Shown: piece after piece, positions 15,922 to 64,000 of the stretch
How the letters are laid out: each line of letters begins with the position of its first letter
Numbering within the stretch: the first letter of the stretch is position 1
Assembly (NCBI GenBank): GCA_022865305.1
Contig: JALHSP010000074.1
Span: 18,413-82,412 of the forward strand
DNA length: 64,000 nucleotides
Source: Bacteroidales bacterium
GTDB lineage: Bacteria > Bacteroidota > Bacteroidia > Bacteroidales > VadinHA17
Direction of reading: 5' to 3'
Made by a program: the position numbers and the translations under genes
Notes under the pieces: model-generated
Database searches by the model: none
What the model was told of the DNA's origin: nothing
What the model saw: only the letters and a program-made list of their open reading frames with translations

Positions 15922-17355
15922 TTAAAAATTAGCGTATACGAATTGCTGCGATTTAAGGCCTGTGACATAGATGATCGTGATAAGTATTGAATAGACAGTC
16001 CATCTTAACACCCTTTTGCTCTTGGCTTCACCTGACCAGAAGGCTTCAAGCTTCAGGTAAACATTATTGTAGTCATTTTGCAGGAGTTCCAGAAAGAGCA
16101 AGGCAGGAATAAATATCAAGACACCAAAAGGTTTAAGACTTATATCATCAAAGGGTGTTTCTCCGCTGAATCTGGTCAGTTTTGTCAAAAATGTCAATGC
16201 TGTTTTTACGTCGGGTGAGAAAAACAATACCATACACAAGCAGTAAAATAAATACGTTACGATTCTGCTAAACCATGTGTTCAGAAATATGGGAACTTTT
16301 GCAAACAATTTAACTCTGAGCTTTTTCGTAAAATACTCATAGTTAATTGCAATGGCCTGAAGGACTCCTATTAACATGAAAGTCCAGCCTGCTCCATGCC
16401 ATATTCCAAAAAGCATCCAGGTTATAAATATCGCATAGACCGAAGCCCACACCCCCCATTTTCTGTATCTGAAACTAGTTTGTTTGAACATATAATCATT
16501 AAACCAGGATGAAAGAGATATATGGAATCTTTTCCAGAAGGTTGTCATGTTTTCCGAAAAGAAGGGACGATTGAAGTTGGGTAAAAGATCTATACCAAAC
16601 ATCTTCGCTATACCAATAGCAATATCTGTATAACCTGAGAAATCAAAATACAGGTAAAGCGGATGAAGGATGAAAATTATCCATGAAGTAAATCCGTCGG
16701 AATAAGCGGTGTTTGTAAAAGAGTTGATCACATAGGGCGCCAGCTGGTTTGCCACAGCAACCTTCTTAAAAACTCCGATCAATACTATTCTTAGTCCTTC
16801 CGCCATCTGTTGCTCATTTATCTTTTTATCAAGACCTAATTGGGGAATAAAGTGATTGGAACGCTCAATAGGTCCGGAAAGGAACTTTGGATAGAAGGTG
16901 ATGTAAAGCAGGAATTTAAGCAGGTTCTTTTCAGGCTTCTCCCATCCCATTTTGACATTGATAAGAAATCCTATACCCTGCAGCGTGAAATAAGAAATAC
17001 CGACCGGAACCATAATCTCGGCAAGCCTGGATACGTAAATATTACTATTGAATAACTGCAGAAACGGATCAATGGTAAATGATGAATATTTCAGAATAAT
17101 CAGCTGTGACAAGTTTATGATAATTCCTGTTCTGAAGAGTGCAATCTTATGCTTTGATCCCGGGATCTTTTGCCCCAGAAAATAATTGATCAGAGAGTAA
17201 ACTAATACATATGGCAAAAGCAAAAAATTAAAAGTGGCAATAAATCCACAGCTTATCAGTACAAGGAATCCAACCCGGTACTTAGGGTTTAACAGGTAAA
17301 AAATAAAAATTGATAATACAACTAATAACGCAAACTTCAATGATATTATTCCCAT
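15922..17355 (-). CDS. second MBOAT family membrane O-acyltransferase
   Basis: FWKRFHISLSSWFNDYMF and GIWHGAG motifs. Polytopic. Confidence 0.9.
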   Translation of the reverse strand: MGIISLKFALLVVLSIFIFYLLNPKYRVGFLVLISCGFIATFNFLLLPYVLVYSLINYFLGQKIPGSKHKIALFRTGIIINLSQLIILKYSSFTIDPFLQLFNSNIYVSRLAEIMVPVGISYFTLQGIGFLINVKMGWEKPEKNLLKFLLYITFYPKFLSGPIERSNHFIPQLGLDKKINEQQMAEGLRIVLIGVFKKVAVANQLAPYVINSFTNTAYSDGFTSWIIFILHPLYLYFDFSGYTDIAIGIAKMFGIDLLPNFNRPFFSENMTTFWKRFHISLSSWFNDYMFKQTSFRYRKWGVWASVYAIFITWMLFGIWHGAGWTFMLIGVLQAIAINYEYFTKKLRVKLFAKVPIFLNTWFSRIVTYLFYCLCMVLFFSPDVKTALTFLTKLTRFSGETPFDDISLKPFGVLIFIPALLFLELLQNDYNNVYLKLEAFWSGEAKSKRVLRWTVYSILITIIYVTGLKSQQFVYANF

Positions 17356-17439
17356 TAATTCAGAGCTTAAGTGCTTATAATATTATAGAATCTGCCCAAA
17401 ATTGAAAACTAAATTTGACCGACAAACACAAGCTATTGA

Positions 17440-18639
17440 CTAACAGACTTTCCTGATACATTTCAATAATACTTCCAGTACTCTTTGCCGTTCTTCATCA
17501 GTCATGCCGGTGCCGGAAGGAAGACATAATCCATTTTGAAATAACCTTTCGGAGACCCCGCTAAGATAAGTCGGGTATACTGAGAAAACAGGCTGTAGAT
17601 GCATAGGCTTCCATAATGGTCTACTCTCAATATTATTCTCCTCCAACTGCTTCTGCAAATCCTCACGTGTAATTCCTGTTATTTCGGCATCGATAATAAC
17701 AGCAGTTAACCAGTGATTTGAAAAGTATGATTTATCAGGTTCTTCGAGAAATTTTAATCCTTGATATTTTTTCAGGTTTTCATAATAGAAGGAAAAATTT
17801 GATCTTCTTTGTTTTACTCTCTCATCAATAACCTCCATCTGCCCGCATCCAATTCCTGCAAGAACATTGCTCATCCGGTAATTATAACCGATCTGGCTAT
17901 GCTGATAATGCGGTGCTTTGTCCCGTGCCTGTGTCGCCAGAAATCTGGCTTTATCAATCATCTCTTTATCGTCTGAGATCAATGCTCCTCCTCCTGATGT
18001 TGTTATGATTTTATTCCCGTTGAAAGACAACACTCCCATTTTACCGAAAGTTCCAACTTGTTTCCCTTTATACTTACTGCCCAGGGCTTCCGCCGCATCT
18101 TCAATTACAGGTATATCGTATTTATTAGCTATAGCCATAATCCTGTCCATATTAGCTGGCATCCCGTATAAGTGAACAACAATGATTGCCTTGGGTAAGC
18201 GATGAGCGGTGAGAGGTGAGTGGTGAGATTTCCCTTGTGCCCTGCGCTCTGCGCCCTGCGCCCTGCGCCCTTTAATGGCTTCCTCAAGCAAGTCAGGGTC
18301 CATATTCCACGTTCCAGGTTCACTGTCAACCAGTACCGGTGTTGCTCCCAGGTAAACAATCGGATTTATAGTTGCTGAAAAAGTAAAGGAGGAAGCAATA
18401 ACTTCATCTCCAGGTTTGACTCCCAGCAGAATAAGGGCCAGGTGAATAGCCGCCGTTCCGGAGCTTAATGCCACAACATGCTTTATGCCACAATACCTGG
18501 CAATAGCTTCTTCAAAGGCATCTACATTCGCCCCAAGCGGAGCTATCCAGTTGGTGTCGAAAGCGACCTTAATATATTTTTGTTCAGCACCTCCCATATG
18601 CGGGCTTGAAAGGTAGATTCGTTTCTTATTTGTCAACAT
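17440..18639 (-). CDS. DegT/DnrJ/EryC1/StrS family PLP-dependent sugar aminotransferase carrying an in-frame ~25-aa repeat-encoded insertion
   Basis: Family pattern throughout (LSSGTAAIHLAL, IEDAAEALGS, SFNGNKIITTSGGGAL). Residues 124-148, GRRAQGAERRAQGKSHHSPLTAHRL, interrupt the usual ..EEAIK/..KAIIVVHLYG junction. Confidence 0.9.
   Translation of the reverse strand: MLTNKKRIYLSSPHMGGAEQKYIKVAFDTNWIAPLGANVDAFEEAIARYCGIKHVVALSSGTAAIHLALILLGVKPGDEVIASSFTFSATINPIVYLGATPVLVDSEPGTWNMDPDLLEEAIKGRRAQGAERRAQGKSHHSPLTAHRLPKAIIVVHLYGMPANMDRIMAIANKYDIPVIEDAAEALGSKYKGKQVGTFGKMGVLSFNGNKIITTSGGGALISDDKEMIDKARFLATQARDKAPHYQHSQIGYNYRMSNVLAGIGCGQMEVIDERVKQRRSNFSFYYENLKKYQGLKFLEEPDKSYFSNHWLTAVIIDAEITGITREDLQKQLEENNIESRPLWKPMHLQPVFSVYPTYLSGVSERLFQNGLCLPSGTGMTDEERQRVLEVLLKCIRKVC
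18194..18272. repeat. two abutting heptamer arrays inside the DegT coding sequence: (GGTGAGN)x5 then (GCGCCCT)x5
   Basis: Read directly: ggtaagc gatgagc ggtgaga ggtgagt ggtgaga tttccct t gtgccct gcgctct gcgccct gcgccct gcgccct. Confidence 0.85.
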
Positions 18640-18680
18640 TTGTGATAATTTGTTATTTCGGTGAATGCTAGTGCAAAGAG

Positions 18681-18743
18681 GTGAGCGGTGAGAGGTGAGC
18701 GGTGAGCGATGAGCGGTGAGTTATGAGCAATGAGTTTTGAGTC
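18681..18743. repeat. heptamer array (GTGAGCG-type, 9 units), left arm of zipper cassette A
   Basis: gtgagcg gtgagag gtgagcg gtgagcg atgagcg gtgagtt atgagca atgagtt ttgagtc. The core ggtgagcgatgagcg (18701-18715) is the exact reverse complement of 19160-19174. Confidence 0.85.
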
Positions 18744-18758
18744 TATAACAAATAGTAT

Positions 18759-19133
18759 TTAAGAACACCACTTATCAGGATGGTTGATCATGGATATCAG
18801 CATCTTGCGAACTTCATCATATTCATTCATTATTTCATCATGGATTTCATTTGAGATATACTTACAATCTCGTGAATAATCCAACCAGACTTCAGTTTCA
18901 TATTCTTCTCCTAATGAATCAGATAATTTATTTACAAAAGATTTGATATAACGCTTCTTTGCCCATGCTTCTGCAATATTTGATGTTACTGACCTCGACG
19001 AGCGACGAATCTGATCGATCAGAGAATACTTTTCTTCTTTTGGAAAATCTTTTGATATCTCAAATATCTTCATCGCCAGCTTATAAGCTTTCTGATATAC
19101 AATTAAATCCTTGAAACTATTTATCTGACTCAT
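18759..19133 (-). CDS. four-helix-bundle protein (23S rRNA intervening-sequence protein family, PF05635/TIGR02436-like)
   Basis: 124 aa. Family pattern FKDLIVYQKAYKLAMKIFEISKDFPKEEKYSLIDQIRRSSRSVTSNIAEAW. Confidence 0.85.
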   Translation of the reverse strand: MSQINSFKDLIVYQKAYKLAMKIFEISKDFPKEEKYSLIDQIRRSSRSVTSNIAEAWAKKRYIKSFVNKLSDSLGEEYETEVWLDYSRDCKYISNEIHDEIMNEYDEVRKMLISMINHPDKWCS

Positions 19134-19146
19134 AAATTGTAATCTA

Positions 19147-19195
19147 TCTCATTTCTCATCGCTCATCGCTCACCTCTCATCTCTATATTCTCACC
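19147..19195. repeat. heptamer array (TCTCATC/GCTCACC-type, 7 units), right arm of zipper cassette A
   Basis: tctcatt tctcatc gctcatc gctcacc tctcatc tctatat tctcacc. This is the complement flavour of 18681-18743. Confidence 0.85.
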
Positions 19196-19215
19196 GATGT
19201 AAAACAGGGCATACA

Positions 19216-20031
19216 TTACTCAAGAATAATCCTCCTTGAATCAAACGCCCAGGCCGCAAAATAACCCAGTGCACCATTAGTAATGTTTGATATGGGATTA
19301 TATGGAGTTGGAGGCATCACCCTTCTTTTCCAGAAAAGGATATCATTCAATTGTAAAAAATAGTTATAGACAGATTTATCAATGGAGAAAACCTGCACAT
19401 CAATTTCACCACCTTCATAAAATATACTTTCTGAAAAACTAATAATATTATTAGTATTGTTAATGATACCATCGTTGGTCTTTTCTTCAGTTAGAAGATA
19501 ATAACTGTCTTCTGCCATTGCACCATCCGAAATGAAGCGAACCAAATAGAAATTATCTGCATCGGGATTATCACTGAATTCGCACGTAATTGTGAATACT
19601 GTCTCTGCATTTGGATTTAATATGCTTTGTGATTGAGATTTAGTATAGCTAACTGAAATTAAATTTGTTTTCTGAGGCATGTATGAAATACCTTCATAAA
19701 TAATACCGTCATGTACTATCTCAATCTCGTAATTTTTTCCTTCAGTCCCAATAACGGAATCACCAATATAAAATCCATTACCAGTATAGCTCAGTTCCTG
19801 ATGTGAGGTTCCATCATTTATTATTATGCTGGCGTCTTCAATACATTGAGGTTCCTCCAGAGAAAAATAACTCGTAGTCTGAGTTAAACGGACAAGGCAG
19901 GTTGAGTCTTTATACATTTTACCTTCAACAACAAATGCAGGGTTAGCCGAATTCAGGTCGATATTAACTACCTCCTCACATGAAGCAATAATAATTAATA
20001 TAGAGATTGCGACTAAAGAATATTTGCTCAT
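19216..20031 (-). CDS. DUF4249-like lipoprotein, the usual partner of CarboxypepD_reg-type TonB receptors
   Basis: The internal ATG gives MSKYSLVAISILIIIASC|EE. Sits immediately downstream of the TonB-dependent receptor, as is typical for this pair. Confidence 0.65.
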   Translation of the reverse strand: MSKYSLVAISILIIIASCEEVVNIDLNSANPAFVVEGKMYKDSTCLVRLTQTTSYFSLEEPQCIEDASIIINDGTSHQELSYTGNGFYIGDSVIGTEGKNYEIEIVHDGIIYEGISYMPQKTNLISVSYTKSQSQSILNPNAETVFTITCEFSDNPDADNFYLVRFISDGAMAEDSYYLLTEEKTNDGIINNTNNIISFSESIFYEGGEIDVQVFSIDKSVYNYFLQLNDILFWKRRVMPPTPYNPISNITNGALGYFAAWAFDSRRIILE

Positions 20032-20041
20032 GAAACTTATT

Positions 20042-22351
20042 TTAAAACCTGAAATTATAGGTGATTGAAGGGACAATACCAAAGAGGCTTAGCTTCACTG
20101 CCTCTGTTGCTCCAGATAAAGTTTTGCTTCCGCGGAAACTAATTATATATGCGTTATGTCTGTTGTAAACGTTATAAACTGAGAAGGTCCAGTCCGACTT
20201 ATACTTTTTGAGATTCTTCCCATGTAAGGTCAGGCTGAGGTCAAGTCGGTGATAGGGAGGCATACGGTATCCATTTCGCTCAGTATAATAGGGTACAGGA
20301 TTATTGTCCACAATATACTTTCCGCTAGGGAAGGTAACTGCATTTCCCGTGGCATATGTCCAAACGCTTGATGTCGTCAATCGCTTACTGAGCTTATAAA
20401 TTGCAATAAAAGACACGTCATGTGTCTTATCAAACTTCATCGGATACCAGGAGAAATTGTTTATTCCTTCTATCTTAGCTTCTGCTCTTGACAGTGTATA
20501 GCTTATCCACCCTGTAAAATCTCCATACTTTTTCTTTATATAAAGTTCAAACCCATAGCTTCTTCCCTTTCCTGTAAGAATCTGCGATTCTGCATGCTCA
20601 TCAAAGATTATTTCAGCTCCATCTTCATAATCAACTGTATTAATCATGTTTTTGTAATAAACTTCTATTGATGTTTCAATGCTATTATTCAGAAAATTCC
20701 TGAATAAGCCTGCAGAAACCTGATCAACTAATACTGGTTTCAGATTATTGCTGCTCGGCATCCATACATCTGTAGGAGAGCCTGTTGTAGTGTTAGACAG
20801 AAGGTGTAAGTATTGTGCCATTCGATTGTATGACAACTTGATGGAACTTTTATCACTTAATATATAATTTACTGAAAGTCGGGGTTCAAGAGCAAAAAAG
20901 GGGTAAGCAGCTTTACCCGAACTATAATACGTTGAATCAACCGGCTCATTTTCTGGATTATATTTATAGAACCAACCCGGACCTATTTGACTAAAAATAG
21001 AAAACCTGAGACCATAATTTGCATTTAATTTTGATGTGATCTTATGTTCGCCTTGAACATATAAAGCACCTTCAAAGCCTCTTTTCTCCCTTAGAGCTAC
21101 TTCGAAGTCAATGCTATCATTAGTAGTTATTTCTCCTGGTCTGAACATGTGATAAGTAATATTCATGCCACTTTTTAAAGTGAAGTCCGGATTAATATAC
21201 CACGTTGCATCTTCTTTAAAGCTCAGGTCTTCAATGCCCGATTTAAGTCTCATGCCAAAAAGGCCGGAAATAAATCCATAATCATACTTGCTGTAAATCA
21301 TTGAGGTTTTGGAAAAAAGTTTCTTACTTAAGAGATGATTCCATCTTATTGTTCCTGTAGTATTTCCCCATATGGTTCCAACATCATTACCTAGTTCAAA
21401 TACATCTTTGCCAAAATAACCTGAAATAAACAACCTGTTTTTTTCATTAATAGTATAATTGAGTTTAGCATTAAAATCGTAGAAATAGAACTTCATATCA
21501 TGCCTGACCAGATCCTCGGGGAACAGAAGCCTGGCAACCAGATCACCATAGGTTCTTCTTCCTGACACAATAAAAGACATTTTATCTTTTATAATCGGGC
21601 CTTCAAAGGTCAAACGAGCAGAAATCAACCCTATTCCACCTGAGCTGCTGAATGTCTTGTTATTCCCATTATTCATTGTAATATCAAGCACAGACGATGC
21701 CCGGCCACCATAGCAGGCAGGTATGCCTCCCTTGTAAACAGTTACATCCTTTATAGCATCAGAATTAAATACTGAAAAGAAACCCATTAAATGAGAGGAA
21801 CTATACACTGATGCTTCATCAAGAAGAATCAGGTTCTGGCCCATTGATCCTCCACGCACATTAAAACCGGTGCTTCCTTCAGCCGAGCTGCTTATACCCG
21901 GAAGTAACTGGATTGTTTTCAGAATATCCTTTTCACCAAAAATAACAGGTATGGTTTCAATCTCCTTCAGATTCAATTTCTCAATACCTATTTCAGCCGA
22001 TGTGATCTTTATATCATTTCTTTCAGAGAATATAACAACTTCATCCAATGCCGTTACGGAAGGTGAAATTTCAATATTTAATATCTGGTTTTTATTAAAC
22101 TCCAATTCAAATTCCTTTTTTTCGTAACCTATATAACTACATCGTATTGTATATGTGCCTTCAGGGAGTGAAAGCGAATAAAAACCATATGAATTAGTTG
22201 CAACGCCTTTGGCAAGTTCAACCACCAGTACTGATACACCAATCAGGTCTTCTCCTGTTTCAACGTCAGTAATTTTCCCACTCACAGTATAGGTTTGCTG
22301 ACCAAAAGTCAATACAGGAAATAACGCAAAAAAAATGAATACTCTTTTCAT
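20042..22351 (-). CDS. TonB-dependent outer-membrane receptor with N-terminal carboxypeptidase-regulatory-like domain
   Basis: Signal peptide, then YTVSGKITDVETGEDLIGVSVLV..TNSYGFYSLSLPEGTYTIRCSYIGYE (CarbopepD_reg). Plug region follows (LPGISSSAEGSTGFNVRGG). The beta-barrel ends in an aromatic residue (..YNFRF). Confidence 0.9.
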   Translation of the reverse strand: MKRVFIFFALFPVLTFGQQTYTVSGKITDVETGEDLIGVSVLVVELAKGVATNSYGFYSLSLPEGTYTIRCSYIGYEKKEFELEFNKNQILNIEISPSVTALDEVVIFSERNDIKITSAEIGIEKLNLKEIETIPVIFGEKDILKTIQLLPGISSSAEGSTGFNVRGGSMGQNLILLDEASVYSSSHLMGFFSVFNSDAIKDVTVYKGGIPACYGGRASSVLDITMNNGNNKTFSSSGGIGLISARLTFEGPIIKDKMSFIVSGRRTYGDLVARLLFPEDLVRHDMKFYFYDFNAKLNYTINEKNRLFISGYFGKDVFELGNDVGTIWGNTTGTIRWNHLLSKKLFSKTSMIYSKYDYGFISGLFGMRLKSGIEDLSFKEDATWYINPDFTLKSGMNITYHMFRPGEITTNDSIDFEVALREKRGFEGALYVQGEHKITSKLNANYGLRFSIFSQIGPGWFYKYNPENEPVDSTYYSSGKAAYPFFALEPRLSVNYILSDKSSIKLSYNRMAQYLHLLSNTTTGSPTDVWMPSSNNLKPVLVDQVSAGLFRNFLNNSIETSIEVYYKNMINTVDYEDGAEIIFDEHAESQILTGKGRSYGFELYIKKKYGDFTGWISYTLSRAEAKIEGINNFSWYPMKFDKTHDVSFIAIYKLSKRLTTSSVWTYATGNAVTFPSGKYIVDNNPVPYYTERNGYRMPPYHRLDLSLTLHGKNLKKYKSDWTFSVYNVYNRHNAYIISFRGSKTLSGATEAVKLSLFGIVPSITYNFRF

Positions 22352-22588: not shown

Positions 22589-23173
22589 TCAGGCTCCTCG
22601 TCTGAAAATTGTCTGCAGGATAATCACAATATCGCCAAAGAAACTCCTGTTCATATAGTACTGGAGATTTAATCTTACTTTATCTGGCCATAATACATTA
22701 TCATTATATTCCTGTGGAGAAGATACATAGGATAGAAGCTCTTCTTCATTGGCATATTTTAAGGATGCCGGGCCTGTAATTCCGGGACGAAGTTCAAGAA
22801 TCTTTTTTTCTTCACCGGTAAGCTTATTTATATATTCAGGCAAGTCAGGTCGCGGACCGACAAAACTCATATCTCCCTTCAGTACATTCCAGAGTTCAGG
22901 TAGTTCATCCAGCTTATATTTGCGCAATTTTGTTCCAAGTGGTGTTATACGGCTCTCTCCCCTGACCGAGATGCTGCTTCCTCCATGGTCAACAACCATT
23001 GTTCGGAATTTATAAAGTATAAATAGCTTTCCATGCTTCCCTGCTCTTTTCTGGCAGAAGAACATAGGCCCCGGCATTCGCATCCTGATTAGTAATGCTA
23101 TTAATAAAAATAGCGGAAAAAGAATGAGCAGCCCTAAAAATGAAGCGATAATGTCAAAGAGCCTCTTAATCAT
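22589..23173 (-). CDS. undecaprenyl-phosphate sugar-phosphate transferase (small PglC/WbaP-C-terminal-type initiating enzyme)
   Basis: MIKRLFDIIASFLGLLILFPLFLLIALLI.., KFRTM, DELPELWNVLKGDMSFVGPRP. Confidence 0.9.
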   Translation of the reverse strand: MIKRLFDIIASFLGLLILFPLFLLIALLIRMRMPGPMFFCQKRAGKHGKLFILYKFRTMVVDHGGSSISVRGESRITPLGTKLRKYKLDELPELWNVLKGDMSFVGPRPDLPEYINKLTGEEKKILELRPGITGPASLKYANEEELLSYVSSPQEYNDNVLWPDKVRLNLQYYMNRSFFGDIVIILQTIFRRGA

Positions 23174-23182
23174 TATTCAGGA

Positions 23183-23245
23183 AGGTATTCAGTATTCAGT
23201 ATTCAGTATTCAGTATTCAGTCATCTAATTACCGATCACGGATTA
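23183..23245. repeat. heptamer array: GGTATTC followed by four perfect AGTATTC units, then attaccg-type units; left side of cassette B
   Basis: ggtattc agtattc agtattc agtattc agtattc agtcatc taattac cgatcac ggattac. Confidence 0.85.
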
Positions 23246-23624
23246 CTGTTCTTAATGCAAAAGGTTGAGGATTTATCAATCATTTTTTGAGGCATTCTTC
23301 CGATGGATTCACATTTATGCAATAACCGCTCAGTCTCTTCTGAATCAATATATTGACACTCTTCTGATACCTCAATCCAATGCTGGGTTTCCATCTGTTC
23401 AGCATCTGCATCTGTCAGCTTTGAAATAAAATGCATCTCGTATCTTCTTTTCCCCAAGCCTCGGCGATTTGCGCACCAATCGATCTTGAAGATCTTCTTA
23501 TCTGGTCAGTTAAGGAATATTTTTCTTCTTTTGGAAAGTTTTTACTCACAAAATATATTGCCTTAGCAACTTCCCGTGAAAGTTTATATACCTCAAGATC
23601 CCGAAAACTTGTCACATACACCAT
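23236..23624 (-). pseudogene. four-helix-bundle (23S rRNA IVS protein family) gene split by a 1-nt frameshift in a G4A4 run
   Basis: ORF 23415-23624 (..KEEKYSLTDQIRRSSRSIGAQIAEAWGKE) continues in another frame as ORF 23236-23457 (GKRRYEMHFISKLTDADAEQMETQHWIE..). The switch lies at ttttcccc, 23447-23454. Confidence 0.8.
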
Positions 23625-23644
23625 TATTACTTTATTTTACAAAT

Positions 23645-23686
23645 AGTACTGATTACCGATTACTGAATACCGATCACTGATTACCC
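23645..23686. repeat. heptamer array (ATTACYG-type, 6 units), right side of cassette B; overlaps the stop codon of the GNAT gene
   Basis: agtactg attaccg attactg aataccg atcactg attaccc. The reverse-complement units cagtaat/cggtatt match the left-arm CAGTATT register at 5-6 of 7 positions. Confidence 0.8.
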
Positions 23687-24279
23687 TCATGATTTTTTAT
23701 AAATTCCACCAGCAAATAATCATTCTGCAATTCCTTAAGTATAACCATCGTTGTGTTTTTTAAATGTGCCCACATTACAGCAGTATTATGTCTTGAGATG
23801 GTTGAAAGACACCTGAAATTCATCCTCCAGGCTGTCTCATACATAATATTATTCATTACCCTCCCTATTTCACGCCCTCTGTAATTTACATCAATCAGCC
23901 TCCCCACAAAGCACTTCTTATTCAAAAAGAAGCGCAGAAAAAAATATCCAACCAGTTTATTTTCACTAAATGTTCCCATCATCAGAAAGGCATTTTTTCT
24001 CAGCTGTTGTTGAAGAGAATTCAAGTCGAATTCATGTGGATGGAAAAAATCAAGATCCGGGACAGGCTGAGATTTTATTAGGTCATAAAGCTGGATCATG
24101 TCATCGGAATTAAGTCTTCTATAAGAAAACGGAGAGACAGAAAACTCATTGAACACATCCGGTAATATTTTTTCCATCTTGTATTTAAATAAAATCATGA
24201 ACAGGAATCCATTACCCCACTCTATTAACTTCCACAGAATACTAAAATGATGCTTAATGAAGATCAGAATTTTTTCCAT
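23674..24279 (-). CDS. GNAT-like acetyltransferase
   Basis: ..LVGYFFLRFF..VGRLIDVNYRGREIGRVMNNIMYETAW.. (R-G-x-x-I-G acetyl-CoA loop). Confidence 0.6.
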   Translation of the reverse strand: MEKILIFIKHHFSILWKLIEWGNGFLFMILFKYKMEKILPDVFNEFSVSPFSYRRLNSDDMIQLYDLIKSQPVPDLDFFHPHEFDLNSLQQQLRKNAFLMMGTFSENKLVGYFFLRFFLNKKCFVGRLIDVNYRGREIGRVMNNIMYETAWRMNFRCLSTISRHNTAVMWAHLKNTTMVILKELQNDYLLVEFIKNHEGNQ

Positions 24280-25353: not shown

Positions 25354-26472
25354 TCAGTCATTTGGATATATTTCACCCAGCATTTCTGCAGAACTGACGA
25401 ACTCGGTATCGGGCCAGTTTCTTACGATAGTATCAAGTAAAAGTTTCAATTCTCTCAATCCTTTTTCTCTGTTACTTTGTTCGATCCCCCCGACAAAGTT
25501 TACTCTGTGCGTGCTGATATTTGCAGGTTTGTTCCAGCGAAAAGCTGCTTCTATTTGTTTAAGAGTTAGATCAATTCCGCGATATCCCGGATCGGTTGGT
25601 TCAAAGGCGCAGTTTCTTGTATAATATATCAATCCATGTGATGTCTTTTTACCGTTTCTGAAGTACTTATATTTTATCCTGCCGTTTTTCCCAGGTATAG
25701 GATTGAAGGTACTTGCATAAATGTATTTTACACCTGTTTCAGCAAGAGTCTTCTCAAAAACAGGATGGAAAATACTATTGCCTGGTACAAAAATCCGTGG
25801 AGTGTAGCCAAAAATATCCTTAAAAAGATGAACCCCTTCAGAAATAGCAGCTTTAAGAAACTCTATCTGCTCAGGGTTGTTAAAATAGAATTCGGAACGG
25901 AATTGATTAAGAACCGGATTTATTCCGTCAATACTTACAGCAATAAATTCATGCTCAAACGCTTCCCTGACAACCTGATTACCCTCACGCAACTTTTGCA
26001 GCCAGAATTGAACCGAAACATGTTCCCGGCCATGTATTTCAGGAATAAAGATCCCAAGTTCCATCCCTTTTTCCCAGGTGTTGAATGTATCAGGATCACG
26101 GTTATATCTCTTTAATGTCTCAATAAATGGCTCATAGAAATATTCAGTGAAATCGCATTCTTTTATTCTTTTAAAGTCAGGATTGGCGACATTTGTTACC
26201 GCAGTCATAACTGCTCCATGACCATTTTTATCCTTAACACTTAACAATATCTCAAATAGATATTCAAGGTCTTGTTTATCAGCCAGAGTATCAAACCTGT
26301 TAAACCTGTTTTCAGTTATGGGAATGTTTGCCTTGAGGATTTTATTATAAACCTCCTTTGATGGCATCCGGATACTTCCCCAATCATCACACTCAATTAC
26401 AAGAAGTTTTCTTTTGCTTCTCTTGCCCTGCAGGTTTTTTAAATTTAGTACAAGGATGTTCTTTAAATCCAT
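25354..26472 (-). CDS. conserved hypothetical enzyme-like protein ('DDWGS' family), paralog of 35155-36258
   Basis: The track start is GTG; ATG is at 26472. Motifs LLVIECDDWGSIRMPSKEVY, IPEIHGREH and STHRVNFVGG are shared with the paralog. Possibly a deacetylase/hydrolase-fold protein (inference only). Confidence 0.65.
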   Translation of the reverse strand: MDLKNILVLNLKNLQGKRSKRKLLVIECDDWGSIRMPSKEVYNKILKANIPITENRFNRFDTLADKQDLEYLFEILLSVKDKNGHGAVMTAVTNVANPDFKRIKECDFTEYFYEPFIETLKRYNRDPDTFNTWEKGMELGIFIPEIHGREHVSVQFWLQKLREGNQVVREAFEHEFIAVSIDGINPVLNQFRSEFYFNNPEQIEFLKAAISEGVHLFKDIFGYTPRIFVPGNSIFHPVFEKTLAETGVKYIYASTFNPIPGKNGRIKYKYFRNGKKTSHGLIYYTRNCAFEPTDPGYRGIDLTLKQIEAAFRWNKPANISTHRVNFVGGIEQSNREKGLRELKLLLDTIVRNWPDTEFVSSAEMLGEIYPND

Positions 26473-26545
26473 AGTCACCTAGATAATTGAAATTCTTTTT
26501 ACTGTTTTTGAAAGAAGTGAATATTACAGCATACCTAAAAATGGA

Positions 26546-38697: not shown

Positions 38698-38781
38698 GAC
38701 CGAAGACCGAAGATCGATGTATTAGGTTCAACTCCTGTCTTCCGTCTTCCGTCTTCCGTCTTCCGCCTTCAACCTTCCTCA
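38698..38781. repeat. empty zipper hairpin: (GACCGAA)x3, 14-nt loop, (TTCCGTC)x5-7
   Basis: gaccgaa gaccgaa gatcgat | gtattaggttcaac | tcctgtc ttccgtc ttccgtc ttccgtc ttccgcc ttcaacc ttcctca. Six of 7 positions pair per unit. The right arm runs into the stop codon and last 7 codons of 38769-40940. Confidence 0.8.
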
Positions 38782-54045: not shown

Positions 54046-54087
54046 CTCTAAGATATTGGAAGAGAGGTTAGATTTTCAATTTGTAAT

Positions 54088-54165
54088 AAGACAAAAGTTA
54101 AAAGATAAAAGTATTAATCTTTGAGTCCTTCACTTTTGTCTTGTGAATTTTATCTTTTGTCTTTT
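54088..54165. repeat. empty zipper hairpin (GACAAAA / CTTTTGT flavour) just upstream of the capD-like start codon
   Basis: aagacaaaagttaaaagataaaag | 21-nt loop | cttttgtcttgtgaattttatcttttgtctttt. Perfect sub-stems are aagacaaaag/cttttgtctt and aaaagataaaa/ttttatctttt. Confidence 0.7.
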
Positions 54166-56688: not shown

Positions 56689-56728
56689 GGTTTTCGTTTT
56701 ACTAGATAGAAGTGCCTGGTTATTTAAA

Positions 56729-56878
56729 GTTGGCAGTTGGCAGTTGGCAGTTGGCAATCTTTGTTTCTTGTGTATATTATTTCAGGGGAAAATTTCAGGA
56801 ATTTCTATTATAATCCTGATCTATTACTTAAAATCTAAAATTTAACTTTTTGCCAACTGCATTTTGCCAACTGCAATT
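56729..56878. repeat. empty zipper hairpin: (GTTGGCA)x4, ~94-nt loop, TGCCAAC-type arm
   Basis: Four perfect gttggca units at 56729-56756, and tgccaac tgcattt tgccaac tgcaatt at 56851-56878. Two 10-bp perfect matches gcagttggca/tgccaactgc. Confidence 0.75.
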
Positions 56879-56953
56879 TTTTGCTAAGGTAAGTAATTAA
56901 GTCGCGTTAAGAATCGAAAGTAATGTGCACTGCTTTAATGCTTAATAATCCGC

Positions 56954-57069
56954 CTAGTGCCGCGGAACATATTTCTCAGGATTTTCCACCATATGATTCA
57001 ACATCCTGCCTACTTCTTCCAAATTGTCAATAAGTTCCAGATATTCTTCGTGAGTGATATAGTTACACT
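56954..57069 (-). pseudogene. 3' remnant (~38 codons) of a four-helix-bundle gene, truncated exactly at the left arm of cassette C
   Basis: Own translation gives KCNYITHEEYLELIDNLEEVGRMLNHMVENPEKYVPRH*. This aligns with the C-terminus of the 18759-19133 product (DCKYISNEIHDEIMNEYDEVRKMLISMINHPDKW). Confidence 0.6.
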
Positions 57070-57123
57070 TAGAATGCCTAGAGTGCCTAAAGTGCCTAGA
57101 GTGCCTAAAGTTGATTAAGTTTG
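57070..57123. repeat. 9-mer array (TAGAGTGCC/TAAAGTGCC type), left arm of cassette C
   Basis: tagaatgcc tagagtgcc taaagtgcc tagagtgcc taaagttga ttaagtttg. agtgcctaaagtt (57100-57112) is the exact reverse complement of 57528-57540. Confidence 0.8.
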
Positions 57124-57126
57124 AAG

Positions 57127-57513
57127 TTATTGTAGTTTTGAAGTTTTACCAATCGAGGTAAAAATTGCCAGTAATTCTATTGCTTCGTTCATTACAGGTT
57201 CCGTTTTTTGTGAGTTGATCCAGTTAAGATCAATTATAATTTCCAGCCAATAGATAGTCTCACTGGCTTCGCTTTCACAAATTCTTATTTTATTTATAAA
57301 ATCAGCTTTACTTCTTGCCCGGTTGGCTTCTCTGTAATTTGCACCAACACTTGTTCCTGCCTTTGTGAATTGATTCCTAATTATTTTCCCTTCAGGTGAT
57401 CCTGGTAAAAGAACAGATAGTTTTATAACACTGATAGCAAATTTCTTCGTTCTTCCCTCCAGTTGCCTGGCAAACTCTTTATTATCCATAACTTCAATTT
57501 TAATAACTCCCAA
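57127..57513 (-). CDS. four-helix-bundle protein (23S rRNA intervening-sequence protein family)
   Basis: 128 aa. ..FAISVIKLSVLLPGSPEGKIIRNQFTKAGTSVGANYREANRARSKADFINKIRICESEASETIYWLE.. is the typical family pattern. Confidence 0.85.
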   Translation of the reverse strand: MGVIKIEVMDNKEFARQLEGRTKKFAISVIKLSVLLPGSPEGKIIRNQFTKAGTSVGANYREANRARSKADFINKIRICESEASETIYWLEIIIDLNWINSQKTEPVMNEAIELLAIFTSIGKTSKLQ

Positions 57514-57540
57514 CTTTAGGCATTCCTAACTTTAGGCACT
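57512..57540. repeat. right arm of cassette C (AACTTTAGGCA repeat), abutting the PorP/SprF stop codon
   Basis: aactttaggcattcct aactttaggcact. Confidence 0.75.
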
Positions 57541-58577: not shown

Positions 58578-61500
58578 TTATCTTCTTATAACAATATAAC
58601 CACCAATTGCATTGCTGTTTGTCGGTTTCAGAATGAAGAAATAAGTGTCATCAGGAAGAGGATTGTTATTATAGTCAACTCCATCCCATTCGTTTTGATA
58701 ATCTCTGTTCAGGTAAACCTGTGCTCCTCTCCTGTCAAATACCACGAGTTCAGTTTTTCCGAGTGTCTCAATTCCACGTAATACGAAGTAATCATTTTTC
58801 CCATCCATATTAGGGGTAATGAGAGTCGGAATGACCAGGTTATTAACAGTAATTATTATATAGTCTTTTGCCGGAGAACATACTCCATTAGTTACTGTCC
58901 ACAAAAGAATGTTTTCACCTAGTTGAAGTCCGGTTACATATGTTTCTGAAGAATCAGCATCAGAGAATTCAGCGGAACCTGATTCGAGAGACCATATCCC
59001 GGTCTCATGAATATCCAGGTCAGCTGCTTCCATTTTTGTTTCAAACAGATATTCCAATACTCTGTCAGGACCTGCATCAGCGACAGGTTTATTCCAAATC
59101 TCAACTTTTACCGAATCAATATTTTTACATCCATATATGTCAGTTAATGTAACCTTATACATGGTAGTTGTTTCCGGAGAAGCTACCGGATCAGATATAC
59201 CAGGATTATCCAACATTGTTTCCGGATCCCAGAAGAAGGTCCCGGTACCAAGTGCATGAAGCTGGACAGATCCTCCTTCACAGAGGATGGTATCTCTGCC
59301 GGCATCAATCGATGGTAAACTTCTGAATATTACCCTGATTATATCTGTAGATTTGCATGTACTGTTTGATTCAGTCCAGGCAAAGTCATATGTACCAAAC
59401 TGGTCCACCGTGACAGTAGCATCAGGCTGATTCGGATCCGGACTAAAGATAGCATTCCCGGGTCCGCTGGATTTAGTCCATGTGCCTGTACCGGAACCAG
59501 GTGTTGCATTCAGGCTGAAATCAAGGTCGCATTCTTCCCCGCCATTTCCCGCATCTGCTGCCGGTGCTTTAATGAAAATAACATTTGTCGAAGCAATATC
59601 TGAACATGTTCCGTTTACTTCTGTCCATGTGAAGGTATAAGATCCATAAGCTGATACAGTAACTTTAGCATTGGGTGCGTTAGCACTTGGAGTGAATGTT
59701 GCTGTTCCTGATCCTGCGGTCTTGGTCCATGTACCGACTCCGACACTTGGAACTGCATTAAGGAAAAATTCCGGACCACAGTTATTGCCGCCTGTTCCGG
59801 GATTAGCATTTGGTTGCTCGTAAAAGTTAACTGTAACTGCAGCACTTTTTGAACATACCACATTTAATTCTGTCCATGTAAATATATAAGTCCCGTATTC
59901 AGATACTGTAACTGTTGCTGTTGGTGAATTTGCACTTGGTGCGAATTCTGCTGTCCCGGGTCCGCTGGTCTTTGTCCAGGTTCCTGTACCAATGTTTAGA
60001 ACCGCACTGAATTTGAAGTTCAGATCGCACTCGTTGCCTCCGGTTCCGGGATTAACTACAGGCTGTCTGTAGAAGTTGACTGTAATTGATGAACTGCTTG
60101 AACAGGTTACATTGACTTCAGTCCAGGTAAAGGTATATGTCCCATATGCTGAAACTGTAACCGTTGCAGTTGGGCTGTTAGCATTTGGTGTGAACGTTGC
60201 AGTGCCCGGTCCGGCAGTTTTAGTCCATGTACCGACTCCAATACTAGGCACTGCATTAAAGATGACTGTCAGATCACACTCATCTCCTCCTTTACCGGCA
60301 TTTGCCAATGGTACTGCATTGACAGTCACAACAGCAGTACCTGTTTGTGTCTGTGAACAACCTGTGGTACTTGCATCCCGGACATTTACCAGTGCATAAG
60401 TAAATATTCCTGAGATACCTGTCGGAACTGGCAATGTAACACTGTTACCTACTGTTGTTGTGATGGTCTGGTTACTGCCATTATTGATCTTATAAGTGAA
60501 TGTATAAGGTGCTGTGCCTGATGCTCCCGTGAAAGCTATATTTGGAGAGGCTGCATCTTTACATACTGTCGTGGTTCCGCTTATGGTAGCCGTTGGCAAT
60601 GGATTAACCGTTATAGTAGCGCTGCCTCCCTGTAGCTGTGAACAGCCTGAAGTACTTCCGTCCCGGACACTTACCAATGTATAAATAAATGTTCCTGCAG
60701 TACCTGTAGATACTGCTACAGTAACACTATTACCACTTGTTGTTGTAACGGTCTGATTACTGCCACTATTGATCTGATAAGTAAAGGTATAAGGTGCTGT
60801 ACCTGATGCTCCCGTGAAAGTAATATTCGGAGAAGCTGCATCTTTGCATACCACTGTGGTTCCGCTGATTGATGCAGTTGGTAATGGATTAACAGTAACA
60901 ATTGCACTGCCTGTTTGTGCCTGCGAACAGGTTGTAATACTTGCATCCCTGACACTTACAAGTGAATATGTAAATGTACCTGCTGTACCGGTGGGTACTG
61001 ATACAGTAACACTGTTACCTGATGTTGTTGTAACTGTCTGGTTGCTTCCACTGTTAATGGTATAGGTGAAAGTATAAGGTGCTGTACCATTTGCTCCTGT
61101 GAAAGTAATATTTGGTGAAGCTACATCTTTACATATCACTGTCGTTCCACTTATCGTCGCTGTTGGTAATGGATTGACTGTTATTGTAGCACTGCCACCC
61201 TGTATCTGCGAGCATGCCGTGGTGCTTCCATCACGAACGCTTACCAGCGCATATGTAAATATTCCAACTGTACCTGTGGGTGCCGGAACCGTCACACTAT
61301 TGCCTGAGGTTGTAGTAACAGTCTGATTGCTTCCGCTATTTATTGTGTAAGTAAAGGTATAGGGTGCTGTACCATTTGCTCCGGTGAATGTAACATTCGG
61401 CGAGGCTGCATCTTTACATACTGCTGTTGTTCCGCTTATGGTTGCTGTTGGTAATGTATTAACTGTTACTACTGCACTACCTGTTTGTGTCTGTGAACAA

Positions 61501-64000
61501 GTCGTACTGCTTGCATCCCTGACACTCACAAGTGAATATGTAAATGTACCTGCCGTACCGGTAGGTGCTGCTACCGTAACACTATTGCCTGAAGTTGTTA
61601 TAACTGTCAGGTTGCTTCCACTGTTAATCTTATAGGTAAAGGTATATGGTGCTGTACCATTTGCCCCTGTGAAAGTAATATTCGGAGATGCTGCATCCTT
61701 ACATACTGCTGTGTTTCCGCTTATGGTCGCAGTCGGTAATGGATTGATCGTAACAGTCGCACTACCCGTTTGTATCTGAGAACAGGTTGTTGCACTTGCA
61801 TCCCGTACACTTACCAGTGAATATGTAAATATACCTGTTGTACCGGTGGGTACTGCTACAGTAACACTGTTACCTACTGTTGTTGTGACAGTTTGATTAC
61901 TGCCACTATTGACTGTATAGGTAAAGGTATAAGGTGCAGTTCCATTTGCTCCTGTGAACGTAATATTAGGTGAAGCTTCATCTTTACATACCACGGTCGT
62001 TCCGCTTATTGATGCTGTCGGTAATGGATTGACAGTAACCACTGTACTGCCCGTTTGTGCCTGCGAACAGGTTGTGGTACTTGCATCCCGGACACTCACA
62101 AGTGAATATGTAAATGTACCTGTCGCACCTGTAGCAGCTGAGACCGTAACACTATTGCCCGATGTTGTTATGACGGTCTGGTTACTTCCGCTGTTTATCT
62201 TATAGGTAAAGGTATACGGTGCTGTGCCATTGGCTCCCGTGAATGTAATATTCGGAGAAGCTGCATCTTTACATACTGCTGTCGTCCCGCTTATGGTCGC
62301 TGTCGGTAATGGATTTATAGTAACCACTGCACTGCCCGTTTGTGCCTGCGAACAGGTCGTACTGCTTGCATCCTGTACACTGACCAGTGTATATGTAAAT
62401 GTTCCTGCTGCACCTGTGGGTACTGCTACTGTAACACTGCTGCCTGAGGTTGTTGTGACAGTCTGGTTGCTTCCGCTATTGATCCTATAGGTAAAGGTAT
62501 ATGGCGCTGTTCCATTTGCACCTGTGAACAAAATATTCGGAGATGCCGCATCTTCACATACTGATGTCGTACCACTGATACTTGCTGTCGGCAGCGGATT
62601 GACAGTTATGTAATTTGCCTTTGTTTCAGTATCCGATGCCCCTTCCGTTATTGTGAGGCTTACTGTTTTCGACCCTGATGTTGTATAGGTTACTGTATGC
62701 GGACCAGATCCCGTTGCCGTTGAAGGTGTGGCCCCTGTACCAAAATTCCAGCTATAGGTCGTCGATCCTGATACTCCTGTGCAAAGACTCGTAAAGATCA
62801 CACTTGAACCTGTGCATATACTTGTACTGCTTGCTGAAAAGTTTGCATTGAGGGTACATCCCTGTAAACTGATTGCCAGTGTTACCTGTGCTCCGGAACA
62901 TCCCGTTGGAAGCGTTTCCACAACACCAATATTGCCATTGTTCATCCCGAAATTAACTGTTATACTGTTATTATCCGGTCCTGTGGCTCCCGAGGTGATG
63001 GTAGCTCCGGTTGGTACTGTCCAGTTATATGTGGATCCTGTTGTCAGTGTTACACTATATACTATTCCGGTAGCACTGCAGGCTGGGGTCTGACTGCCGC
63101 TTATGGCCGAGGTAGTTGGCAATGGATTAACAGTTACTACTGCGCTTCCTGTCTGTGTTTGAGAACAGGTTGTAGTACTTGCATCCTGAACACTTACAAG
63201 GGTATAGGTAAACGTACCTGCTGTTCCTGTGGGTACTGCTACTGTGACACTATTGCCTGATGTCGTTGTAACTGTTTGATTGCTGCCGGTATTGATCCTA
63301 TAGGTAAAGGTATACGGTGCTGTGCCATTTGACCCTGTGAAGGTGATATTCGGAGATGCAGCATCTTTACATACTGCTGTCGTTCCGCTTATCGTAGCTG
63401 TCGGTAACGGATTCACTGTTACTACTGCACTGCCCGTCTGTACCTGGGTACAGGCAGAAGTGCTTGCATCACGCACACTTACAAGGGTATAGGTAAAGGT
63501 TCCTGCTGTACCTGTGGGTGCTGCTACTGTAACACTATTGCCTGAACTTGTTGTGATGGTCTGGTTGCTTCCGCTGTTGATCCTATAGGTAAAGGTATAT
63601 GGTGCTGTGCCATTTGCTCCTGTGAACGTAATATTCGGAGAAGCTGCATTTCTGCATACCGCTGTCGTTCCGATTATTGTTGCGGTTGGCAATGGATTAA
63701 TAGTCACTATTGCACTACCTGTCTGTGCTTGTGAACAGGTCGTAGCACTGGCATCTCTGACACTTACAAGGGAATATGTAAATATACCTGTTGCATTAGT
63801 AGGTACTGATAACGTTACACTACTGCCCGATGTTGTTGAAACAGTCTGGTTGCTGCCGCTATTGACAGAATAGGTAAAGGTATAAGGTGCTGTGCCATTT
63901 GCTCCTGTGAATGTAATATTTGGTGAAGCTGCACCAATACATACTGCTGTAGTTCCGCTTATAGTTGCTGTTGGTAACGGATTCACTGTCACTACTGCAC
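58578..64000 (-). CDS. giant repeat adhesin (at least 1804 aa in window, 5' end outside) with a type-B T9SS (gliding-motility-associated) C-terminal domain
   Basis: The ORF is open to the window edge. The C-terminus ..IPTLITPNMDGKNDYFVLRGIE..VVFDRRGAQVY..DDTYFFILKP.. is the CHU_C/TIGR04131-type domain. Upstream are tandem 95-aa and ~83-aa Ig-like repeats and one PKD-like module. Confidence 0.9.
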   Translation of the reverse strand, partial: AVVTVNPLPTATISGTTAVCIGAASPNITFTGANGTAPYTFTYSVNSGSNQTVSTTSGSSVTLSVPTNATGIFTYSLVSVRDASATTCSQAQTGSAIVTINPLPTATIIGTTAVCRNAASPNITFTGANGTAPYTFTYRINSGSNQTITTSSGNSVTVAAPTGTAGTFTYTLVSVRDASTSACTQVQTGSAVVTVNPLPTATISGTTAVCKDAASPNITFTGSNGTAPYTFTYRINTGSNQTVTTTSGNSVTVAVPTGTAGTFTYTLVSVQDASTTTCSQTQTGSAVVTVNPLPTTSAISGSQTPACSATGIVYSVTLTTGSTYNWTVPTGATITSGATGPDNNSITVNFGMNNGNIGVVETLPTGCSGAQVTLAISLQGCTLNANFSASSTSICTGSSVIFTSLCTGVSGSTTYSWNFGTGATPSTATGSGPHTVTYTTSGSKTVSLTITEGASDTETKANYITVNPLPTASISGTTSVCEDAASPNILFTGANGTAPYTFTYRINSGSNQTVTTTSGSSVTVAVPTGAAGTFTYTLVSVQDASSTTCSQAQTGSAVVTINPLPTATISGTTAVCKDAASPNITFTGANGTAPYTFTYKINSGSNQTVITTSGNSVTVSAATGATGTFTYSLVSVRDASTTTCSQAQTGSTVVTVNPLPTASISGTTVVCKDEASPNITFTGANGTAPYTFTYTVNSGSNQTVTTTVGNSVTVAVPTGTTGIFTYSLVSVRDASATTCSQIQTGSATVTINPLPTATISGNTAVCKDAASPNITFTGANGTAPYTFTYKINSGSNLTVITTSGNSVTVAAPTGTAGTFTYSLVSVRDASSTTCSQTQTGSAVVTVNTLPTATISGTTAVCKDAASPNVTFTGANGTAPYTFTYTINSGSNQTVTTTSGNSVTVPAPTGTVGIFTYALVSVRDGSTTACSQIQGGSATITVNPLPTATISGTTVICKDVASPNITFTGANGTAPYTFTYTINSGSNQTVTTTSGNSVTVSVPTGTAGTFTYSLVSVRDASITTCSQAQTGSAIVTVNPLPTASISGTTVVCKDAASPNITFTGASGTAPYTFTYQINSGSNQTVTTTSGNSVTVAVSTGTAGTFIYTLVSVRDGSTSGCSQLQGGSATITVNPLPTATISGTTTVCKDAASPNIAFTGASGTAPYTFTYKINNGSNQTITTTVGNSVTLPVPTGISGIFTYALVNVRDASTTGCSQTQTGTAVVTVNAVPLANAGKGGDECDLTVIFNAVPSIGVGTWTKTAGPGTATFTPNANSPTATVTVSAYGTYTFTWTEVNVTCSSSSSITVNFYRQPVVNPGTGGNECDLNFKFSAVLNIGTGTWTKTSGPGTAEFAPSANSPTATVTVSEYGTYIFTWTELNVVCSKSAAVTVNFYEQPNANPGTGGNNCGPEFFLNAVPSVGVGTWTKTAGSGTATFTPSANAPNAKVTVSAYGSYTFTWTEVNGTCSDIASTNVIFIKAPAADAGNGGEECDLDFSLNATPGSGTGTWTKSSGPGNAIFSPDPNQPDATVTVDQFGTYDFAWTESNSTCKSTDIIRVIFRSLPSIDAGRDTILCEGGSVQLHALGTGTFFWDPETMLDNPGISDPVASPETTTMYKVTLTDIYGCKNIDSVKVEIWNKPVADAGPDRVLEYLFETKMEAADLDIHETGIWSLESGSAEFSDADSSETYVTGLQLGENILLWTVTNGVCSPAKDYIIITVNNLVIPTLITPNMDGKNDYFVLRGIETLGKTELVVFDRRGAQVYLNRDYQNEWDGVDYNNNPLPDDTYFFILKPTNSNAIGGYIVIRR
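59312..60305 (-). repeat. 4 tandem copies of a ~250-bp (~83-aa) coding repeat
   Basis: Unit N(P/A)G.GG.ECDL.F...V..IG.GTWTKT.GPGTA.F.P.AN.P.A.VTVS.YG.Y.FTWTE.N..C.... Confidence 0.8.
60320..62602 (-). repeat. 8 tandem copies of a 285-bp (95-aa) coding repeat
   Basis: The unit NPLPTA(T/S)ISGTT.VCKDAASPNITFTGANGTAPYTFTY.INSGSNQTVTTTSGNSVTV..PTGTAGTFTYSLVSVRDAS.TTCSQ.QTGSA.VTV recurs every 95 aa. Antisense ORFs in the track step by 285 nt (60814, 61099, 61384, 61954). Confidence 0.9.
63129..64000 (-). repeat. second block of the same 285-bp repeat (3 copies in window, continues past the edge)
   Basis: NPLPT occurs at residues 4, 99 and 194 of the window-internal translation. Confidence 0.85.

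Follow-up and report, generated by a model that had tools for sequence, protein, structure and literature searches.

How does a gene of a family that is otherwise encoded in one uninterrupted frame come to be split over two frames, and why does it lie between two arrays of seven-nucleotide repeats inside a polysaccharide operon? These questions are raised by a locus in a 64,000-nt stretch of a Bacteroidales metagenome-assembled genome (MAG; GCA_022865305.1, JALHSP010000074.1:18,413-82,412), which we analyzed as a whole and refer to as the window. The gene encodes a four-helix-bundle (4HB) protein, and together with its flanking arrays it makes up cassette B, one of three such cassettes in the window. 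An initial annotation, made from the letters of the window alone, had described the split gene and the arrays and had named decay, phase variation, and programmed slippage as possible causes of the split. We consider it probable that cassette B is a resident copy of a widespread 4HB cassette with heptamer arms, resembling the intervening sequences (IVS) of 23S rRNA, and that it was recently broken by decay.

The two parts of the gene lie on the minus strand. The 5' fragment of 69 aa (23415..23624) covers helices 1-2, ends with AEAWGKEDTRCILFQS and a stop codon, and matches profile positions 1-51 of TIGR02436 with 56.5 bits. The 3' fragment of 73 aa (23236..23457) covers helices 3-4, includes GKRRYEMHFISKLTDADAEQ, and is read in the -1 frame, which is free of further stops until its own stop codon within a heptamer unit. 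Joining the two restores an open reading frame (ORF) that far exceeds the cut-offs of both profiles, with 113.8 bits against 33.8 for PF05635 and 105.5 bits against 24 for TIGR02436. This confirms the split gene of the initial annotation and makes the restored ORF a clear member of this four-helix-bundle family, named '23S rRNA intervening-sequence protein'. Solved structures related to it by sequence are 2RLD (Bacteroides) and 2GSC (XCC0516). At least 8000 database proteins match the restored protein, and the 120 best matches are single-frame proteins of 124-151 aa with 72-85% identity. An intact single ORF of ~120-130 aa is expected for the family, whereas the copy in cassette B offers only frames of 69 and 73 aa.

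Cassette B lies within a Bacteroidales polysaccharide operon, in which it separates a GNAT-like gene from a sugar-transferase gene, and is co-stranded with both, the minus strand being the coding strand for every gene around it. On the gene strand, the order is the GNAT-like gene, the upstream arm, the leader, the 4HB ORF, the inner units, the downstream arm, and the sugar-transferase gene. The upstream neighbor encodes a 201-aa protein (23674..24279, minus strand; NCBI protein MUO72_10005). Its earlier designation as GNAT can be kept on the strength of its homologues, in which PF00583 is found, whereas the 201-aa protein itself has no Pfam match. The downstream neighbor is a bacterial sugar transferase (22589..23173, minus strand; PF02397).

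The upstream arm (23651..23685, minus strand) consists of five units, which read GGTAATC, AGTGATC, GGTATTC, AGTAATC, and GGTAATC on the gene strand and GATTACC, GATTACT, GAATACC, GATCACT, and GATTACC on the plus strand. This arm supplies the tail and the stop codon of the GNAT-like gene. The TGA corresponds to TCA at 23674-23676 of the plus strand and lies, together with the codons G-N-Q, within the units; the initial annotation was right about the stop and counted one codon too many, the E codon lying just outside. A leader of 26 nt (23625..23650, minus strand) containing a degenerate sixth unit, AGTACTA, connects this arm to the ATG of the 4HB ORF (23622-23624). At the 3' side of the ORF, the inner units (23219..23247, minus strand) read AGTAATC, CGTGATC, GGTAATT, and AGATGAC on the gene strand, three in the forward sense and one degenerate; on the plus strand, the degenerate AGTCATC (23219-23225) is followed by AATTACC, GATCACG, and GATTACT (23227-23247). 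These forward-sense units are able to pair locally with the outer downstream arm. The downstream arm itself (23184..23218, minus strand), (GAATACT)x4 plus GAATACC on the gene strand, is the reverse complement of the upstream-arm family and stops 10 nt short of the sugar-transferase ATG (23171-23173). On the plus strand it appears as GGTATTC (23184-23190) and four perfect AGTATTC units (23191-23218), followed by opposite-sense units of the attaccg type, all of which the initial annotation had reported for this left array; Tandem Repeats Finder (TRF) gave it 5.3 copies, a 100% match, and a score of 74. The 3' end of the 4HB ORF does enter the left array, as had also been noted, with its stop (23236-23238) inside the opposite-sense unit GATCACG.

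The arrays of cassette B are tandem intergenic 7-nt repeats beyond chance. The family pattern GAWTACYGAWYACY has 10 matches in the window against 0.61 expected (~16-fold), and none of 100 shuffles reached 10. The forward units carry TAA or TGA, and since 7 equals 1 modulo 3, three successive units give stops in all frames. Genes reading into an arm therefore terminate within a few codons, which accounts for the stop of the neighbor within the array.

As RNA, the whole cassette (23177..23692, minus strand) is predicted to form a stem-loop in which 40 long-range pairs between 23648-23692 and 23177-23221 enclose the ORF. The predicted minimum free energy (MFE) is -137.2 kcal/mol (z = -4.31; 0/100 shuffles as stable), and the 40-pair closing stem, spanning ~45 positions, occurs in the MFE as well as the centroid structure. 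The left side can also fold on itself, as initially suggested (-17.8 kcal/mol, z = -5.0). The leader of cassette B contains no Bacteroidetes -7 motif and shows no enrichment of sigma-70-type sites, no intrinsic terminator was found at the cassette, and searching the whole window against Rfam at gathering thresholds gave no match, rRNA included.

Is this arrangement a peculiarity of one locus? Scanning one genome per species yielded 490 genomic relatives, the best 80 of which (59-80% identity, mostly Bacteroidota) were analyzed. TRF arrays were present within 200 nt in 67/80 upstream and 63/80 downstream flanks, compared with 8/80 and 15/80 for controls 1 kb away, and 118 of the 130 flank arrays had a period of 7. 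Most of the 80 relatives have forward RGTAWTC units upstream and the reverse complement downstream. With strict RGTRWTC doublets (n = 72), the upstream flank was forward-sense at 32 loci and reverse-sense at 7, and the downstream flank was reverse-complement at 41 loci and forward-sense at 5. An inverted complementarity score of 12 or more between the flanks was found for 49/72 loci and for none of 63 displaced controls. We used this ungapped score and a permutation test of unit covariation in place of RNA duplex energies, which separated poorly from the controls (median -55.6 vs. -38.6, -42.7, and -35.3 kcal/mol). The units vary between loci (GGTAATC, GGTATTC, GGTAAAC, AGGTAAG, GTAGTTG, and others), and both arms of one locus match: the mean distance between arm units within a locus was 1.26, against 2.07 +/- 0.10 after permutation, and none of 2000 permutations was as good. 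In 26 of the 50 pairs of consensus units, the arms differ at one position, with GGTAATC against GGTATTC recurring. The covariation of the arms preserves their pairing. Together the arrays form the two arms of a cassette whose design is conserved throughout the family, a role that was missed when the initial annotation, correct about their presence, treated them as separate curiosities.

The 4HB genes are co-oriented with the upstream neighbor at 60/73 loci and with the downstream neighbor at 55/71 loci, and the stop of the upstream gene falls within the array at 18/60 loci. The motif TAnnTTTG (Bacteroidetes -7), which would indicate a promoter of their own, occurs at only 4/77 loci, and sigma-70-like sites are not enriched. 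Relatives that are 83-91% identical to the 4HB protein of cassette A, another cassette in the window, occur in three unrelated gene contexts with RGTGAGY units upstream and the complement downstream. The repeats are clade-specific, with the RGTAWTC family in one 4HB clade and RGTGAGY in a second, which suggests that the protein might have a role on its own repeats.

The closest functional model may be found in ribosomal RNA. In Coxiella burnetii, an IVS carrying an ORF of the same family has complementary ends (28-bp stem) and is excised by RNase III, and the element is regarded as selfish (PMC4990558). By analogy, read-through of the host operon would transcribe cassette B, the arrays would pair into a stem closing the ORF into a loop, and RNase III might cut this stem and so free the cassette RNA from the transcript of the operon. 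Like the 23S rRNA IVS of Leptospira and Coxiella burnetii, cassette B has a decay-prone PF05635 ORF enclosed by complementary ends (40 pairs). It differs from them in lying between protein-coding genes of a polysaccharide operon and not in a 23S rRNA helix, in having tandem heptamer arrays of variable copy number as arms where the rRNA elements have a unique inverted repeat, and in that RNase III excision, demonstrated for the latter, is for cassette B a proposal by analogy. We therefore regard the cassette as an element of the IVS type that lies outside rRNA and has heptamer arrays for arms, and cassette B as a pseudogenised copy of it. A search of IMG/VR viral contigs returned no close relative of the 4HB protein, and the PADLOC defence models did not match any of the three 4HB proteins of the window.

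The history of the junction can be followed in orthologous loci. In L004, which has the closest cassette and comes from a more distant organism, the same cassette lies between the same two genes with an unbroken 4HB gene, whose 129-aa product shares 84% identity with the restored protein; the GNAT and transferase proteins are 62% and 71% identical, respectively, and the loci align collinearly over 1333 nt with 72% identity. The dS between these two filled sites is saturated, so the insertion is old, and recent horizontal transfer between them was rejected. L002 (GNAT 79.5% identical) and L003 (70.6%) have a junction of ~51 nt that lacks the 4HB gene and retains no more than a two-unit relic of an array; of the three closest orthologous loci that we examined, two are thus essentially empty. 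The pattern points to the GNAT/sugar-transferase junction as a recurrent landing site, visited repeatedly. No target-site duplication was visible when filled and empty junctions were compared. Array relics are also seen at this junction in L092 (2090-2125) and L003 (5247-5297), and L091 (2085-2160) has ORF-less arrays there, GCGCAGA/GCTCAGR x5, which encode a GNAT tail ending in SSGLRAQSEEESIK. The sugar-transferase gene of L002 (2304-2890) appears to be frameshifted in its contig, where an 84-aa gene is called and the frame changes near 2615.

A minority view worth keeping is that the arms might work chiefly as DNA, forming hairpins or cruciforms that serve as sites of recombination or mobility (cf. 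REPIN, attC), and not as an RNA-processing stem. The coexistence of empty and filled sites among the relatives, the presence of different array families at the same junction in L091 and L092, the solo inverted arrays elsewhere in the window, the clade-specific repeats, which are reminiscent of RAYT-REPIN pairs, and the many family members found on contigs shorter than 2 kb or ending inside arrays would all be in keeping with it. On the other hand, neither the cassette nor its vicinity contains a recombinase, HUH transposase, or integrase, no target-site duplication is visible, the saturated dS between the two filled orthologous sites indicates an old insertion, and the strong co-orientation with host genes fits better with a constraint at the RNA level. 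Action of the arms on DNA would be compatible with our explanation of the frameshift.

Other repeat systems share parts of the design. In REP/REPIN-RAYT systems, a small gene is flanked by its own cognate inverted repeats, and ORF-less copies occur elsewhere in the genome. The 4HB protein differs in having no features of HUH transposases, its genes are multi-copy (64 kb hold three cassettes and what is left of a truncated fourth ORF), and the place of single palindromes is taken by tandem heptamers. Membership in the REPIN-RAYT type or in that of miniature inverted-repeat transposable elements was rejected, the only ORF being the 4HB ORF and filled versus empty sites showing no target-site duplication. 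By appearance, the two tandem-heptamer arms of cassette B also look different from integron attC, a single site with R and L boxes. Bacterial heptamer repeats, such as TAACTGA, GGGAATC, and the cyanobacterial STRR-type repeats, are likewise tandem and intergenic and often stand before start codons or as convergent inverted pairs. TAACTGA, catalogued in Beggiatoaceae, Cyanobacteria, and Bacteroidetes with no linked gene (PMC4679880), can be obtained by rotating the reverse complement of AGTTATC, and GGGAATC, described as convergent pairs in Xanthomonas, again with no linked gene (PMC4692102), resembles GGTAATC. The arrays of the cassettes differ from these in forming arms around a 4HB ORF and in co-varying with the protein clade. 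Our literature search found no paper that links the 4HB protein family to flanking heptamer arrays or describes the cassette design; 23S_rRNA_IVP genes have been observed wedged between cas genes (PMC3936711).

The fold is also homologous to that of Avd, the four-helix-bundle accessory protein of diversity-generating retroelements (PMC10053308), and the restored protein matches PF22296 with 43.7 bits. Identity with Avd of these retroelements was rejected, the score on NF033474 being 36.3 bits against an equivalog cut-off of 80. No reverse transcriptase was present among the Pfam-annotated neighbors (~8 kb on one side and the ORFs of 15922-22351 on the other), and the neighborhood contained no pair of template and variable repeats.

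What, then, broke the gene? The frames part at 23448..23455 (minus strand), where TTTTCCCC on the plus strand, or GGGGAAAA on the gene strand, contains one A fewer than the intact relatives; the G4A4 run seen by the initial annotation, T4C4 on the plus strand, exists, and the position given for it, 23447-23454, was off by one base. The 5' fragment terminates 11 codons past this site. All 80 of the best genomic relatives match as one unbroken full-length segment, and at the break site they always read W-G/A-K-R-R/K-Y, with Gly and Lys codons free at the third position. L024 has TGG GGA AAA AGA AGA TAC where the window has TGG GGA AAA GAA GAT AC. The window thus has the L024 sequence with a single A removed, and what broke the frame is the loss of one base from an A5 run, which bears out the single-nucleotide homopolymer indel proposed at the outset; the comparison with orthologous loci that had been called for supports the same reading, the copy in L004 being intact. 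Judged from these alignments, the ancestral A5 run lost one A, TGGGGAAAAAGA becoming TGGGGAAAAGA, and the protein was cut after two of its four helices.

The 4HB ORF of the window is otherwise undamaged. Compared with L004, the dN/dS ratio amounts to 0.05 for the whole ORF and to 0.10 in the half past the frameshift, with dS saturated. The low ratios in both halves imply long purifying selection and a recent frameshift. The 4HB gene of cassette B is, in our judgment, very probably a young pseudogene and, at most, a variant leaking trace amounts of full-length protein through accidental -1 slippage. The break itself is ordinary gene decay, the cause favored among the three that the initial annotation had left open.

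A missing base in a homopolymer might also have arisen during sequencing, assembly, or consensus calling, with the organism truly carrying A5 and an intact gene. The source is a MAG, homopolymer indels are a common class of error, and the ORF has no other defect. Against this, a Logan contig from the same organism, built independently as a separate assembly, shares the A4 allele and is 99.988% identical over 8346 nt, the sole difference being A in the window and C in Logan at position 25968, inside ORF 25354..26478. A run of 4-5 nt is also short for a systematic short-read error, and we regard such an artefact as unlikely. Neither the A4 nor the A4+N allele was matched when JGI metagenomes were scanned for the exact patterns.

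Programmed -1 ribosomal frameshifting at G_GGA_AAA could in principle produce full-length 4HB protein from the A4 allele, with the 69-aa product as a second isoform. The zero frame, TG|G GGA AAA|GAA, indeed presents a canonical X_XXY_YYZ slippery heptamer, a -1 slip on it would restore the family sequence W-G-K-R-R-Y, and the -1 frame runs for 73 codons with no stop and shares 84% identity with the intact orthologue. Yet none of the 80 relatives needs a frameshift, and the slippery heptamer is in frame in just 17 of 73 relatives, through synonymous choice of Gly and Lys codons, and hence is not conserved. The RNA 3' of the site (83 nt) folds with -16.1 kcal/mol (z = -1.08), a stability matched by 24 of 200 shuffles, and its first hairpin begins ~12 nt past the slippery site, where a stimulatory structure would be looked for 5-9 nt downstream. 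The exact A5 version of the sequence is found in L024. As the slippery site is not conserved, a stimulatory structure is lacking downstream, and the runs measure only 4 nt, programmed frameshifting and phase variation are both unlikely, and we give the former very little credence. Phase variation, in which reversible slipped-strand changes in the G4/A4 run or in the AGTATTC copy number would switch the gene, is the least credible of all, because, even though the break falls in adjacent homopolymers and the left array has four perfect units, known contingency loci have tracts of ~7-8 nt or longer against 4 + 4 nt here, the MAG and the Logan assembly have the same tract and array lengths, arrays of related cassettes with up to ~19 units are identical across 3-5 independent samples, and the arrays lie outside the ORF body, where a change in length would not reset the frame.

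Several points nevertheless weigh against our account of cassette B as an IVS-like element lately broken by decay. The MAG and Logan assemblies probably derive from one sample, and, the evidence being at the level of assemblies, a consensus or strain-mixture artefact at the A-run might still lie behind the A4 allele. Because G_GGA_AAA is in frame and a -1 shift restores the protein exactly, some full-length protein may still be made. About one fifth of the relatives have no array on one side. For three related cassettes, 3-5 independent samples agreed in array copy number, which is not the behavior of repeats that slip fast. The vicinity contains no transposase, integrase, or reverse transcriptase. 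Finally, RNase III cleavage and read-through transcription are steps that we infer from the rRNA precedent, and an action of the protein on the repeats is likewise putative.

The frameshift is routine, whereas the architecture around it is general, conserved, and experimentally tractable. It physically links two puzzles, namely the role of the abundant '23S rRNA intervening-sequence'/4HB proteins and the heptamers that are the most over-represented of the longer simple-sequence repeats in many bacteria. The cassette was found in operons across Bacteroidota and in one of the two cyanobacterial plasmid copies inspected. Its carriers include the cultured organisms Perlabentimonas gracilis M08_MB (L035), Rhodohalobacter sulfatireducens WB101 (L030), Fulvivirga imtechensis AK7 (L078), Echinicola salinicaeni P51 (L084), and Ekhidna sp. 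To15 (L088). For annotation, it follows that arrays of this kind can donate stop codons and C-terminal tails to neighboring genes, can persist in frame inside enzymes, and break metagenome assemblies. We tentatively speculate that 4HB genes and their clade-specific arrays could form an unrecognized class of operon-embedded elements, selfish or domesticated, in which an Avd-like pentameric protein would recognize its own arms as RNA or DNA. The rRNA IVS might then be a special case that landed in rRNA, and the elements and their ORF-less leftovers might be a major source of the heptamer excess in Bacteroidota and Cyanobacteria, including in-frame coding insertions.

The cyanobacterial copies lie on plasmids. 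L104 (Nostoc sp. MS1 plasmid pNSMS101) has at 1155-1610 a 4HB gene with GCAGGGA x4 upstream and CCCCTGC x3 downstream, and L103, an Oscillatoria plasmid, has a 4HB gene with long, same-sense, G/A-rich 7-8-mers on both sides. Many contigs with these 4HB genes, seen among the protein matches and at the ends of L100, L101, and L102, are shorter than 2 kb or end inside the downstream array. Short-read metagenome assemblies seem to break often at heptamer arrays.

Two further cassettes lie in the window. Cassette A (18680..19184, minus strand) contains an intact 4HB ORF of 124 aa (18759..19133), with an RGTGAGY array upstream (19147-19184) and the reverse complement at 18680-18742. It is located between a DUF4249 gene (19216..20082) and a DegT gene (17440..18639), directly upstream of the latter, and L093, a relative with 91% identity, occupies the same position upstream of a DegT gene. 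The DegT aminotransferase ORF (17440..18639, minus strand) has in-frame arrays of its own at 18194-18271, (GGGCGCA)x5 plus (TCACCNC)x5 on the gene strand, in the stop-free orientation, which encode an insert of ~27 aa, GRRAQGAERRAQGKSHHSPLTAHRLP. The DegT orthologue in L005 (73% identical) has a shorter insert in the same loop, still with GGTGAGT and GATGAGC units.

Cassette C (56957..57538, minus strand; 57070-57538 without the abutting remnant) has a 4HB ORF at 57130..57525 and arms of 9-/16-mer repeats, with genes for PorP/SprF and for an OmpA/PKD protein as neighbors. A 38-aa C-terminal remnant of another 4HB ORF (56957-57069) abuts it, which suggests nested or successive insertions. Arrays with no ORF are found at gene boundaries, namely AAGAYAA/CTTTTGT (54085-54165), GACCGAA/GTCTTCC (38698-38794), AGTGAGT (37884-37903), and AGTTGGC/GCCAACT (56728-56879). 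Three of the four are inverted pairs and AGTGAGT is a single three-unit array; they may be relics of cassettes or independent elements. At the end of the window, an ORF of at least 1804 aa (58578..63992, minus strand) contains a 285-nt (95-aa) tandem repeat in 7.9 + 3.1 copies with ~78% identity (repeat region 60309-64000), and it probably encodes a repetitive surface protein beside the PorP/SprF of the type IX secretion system.

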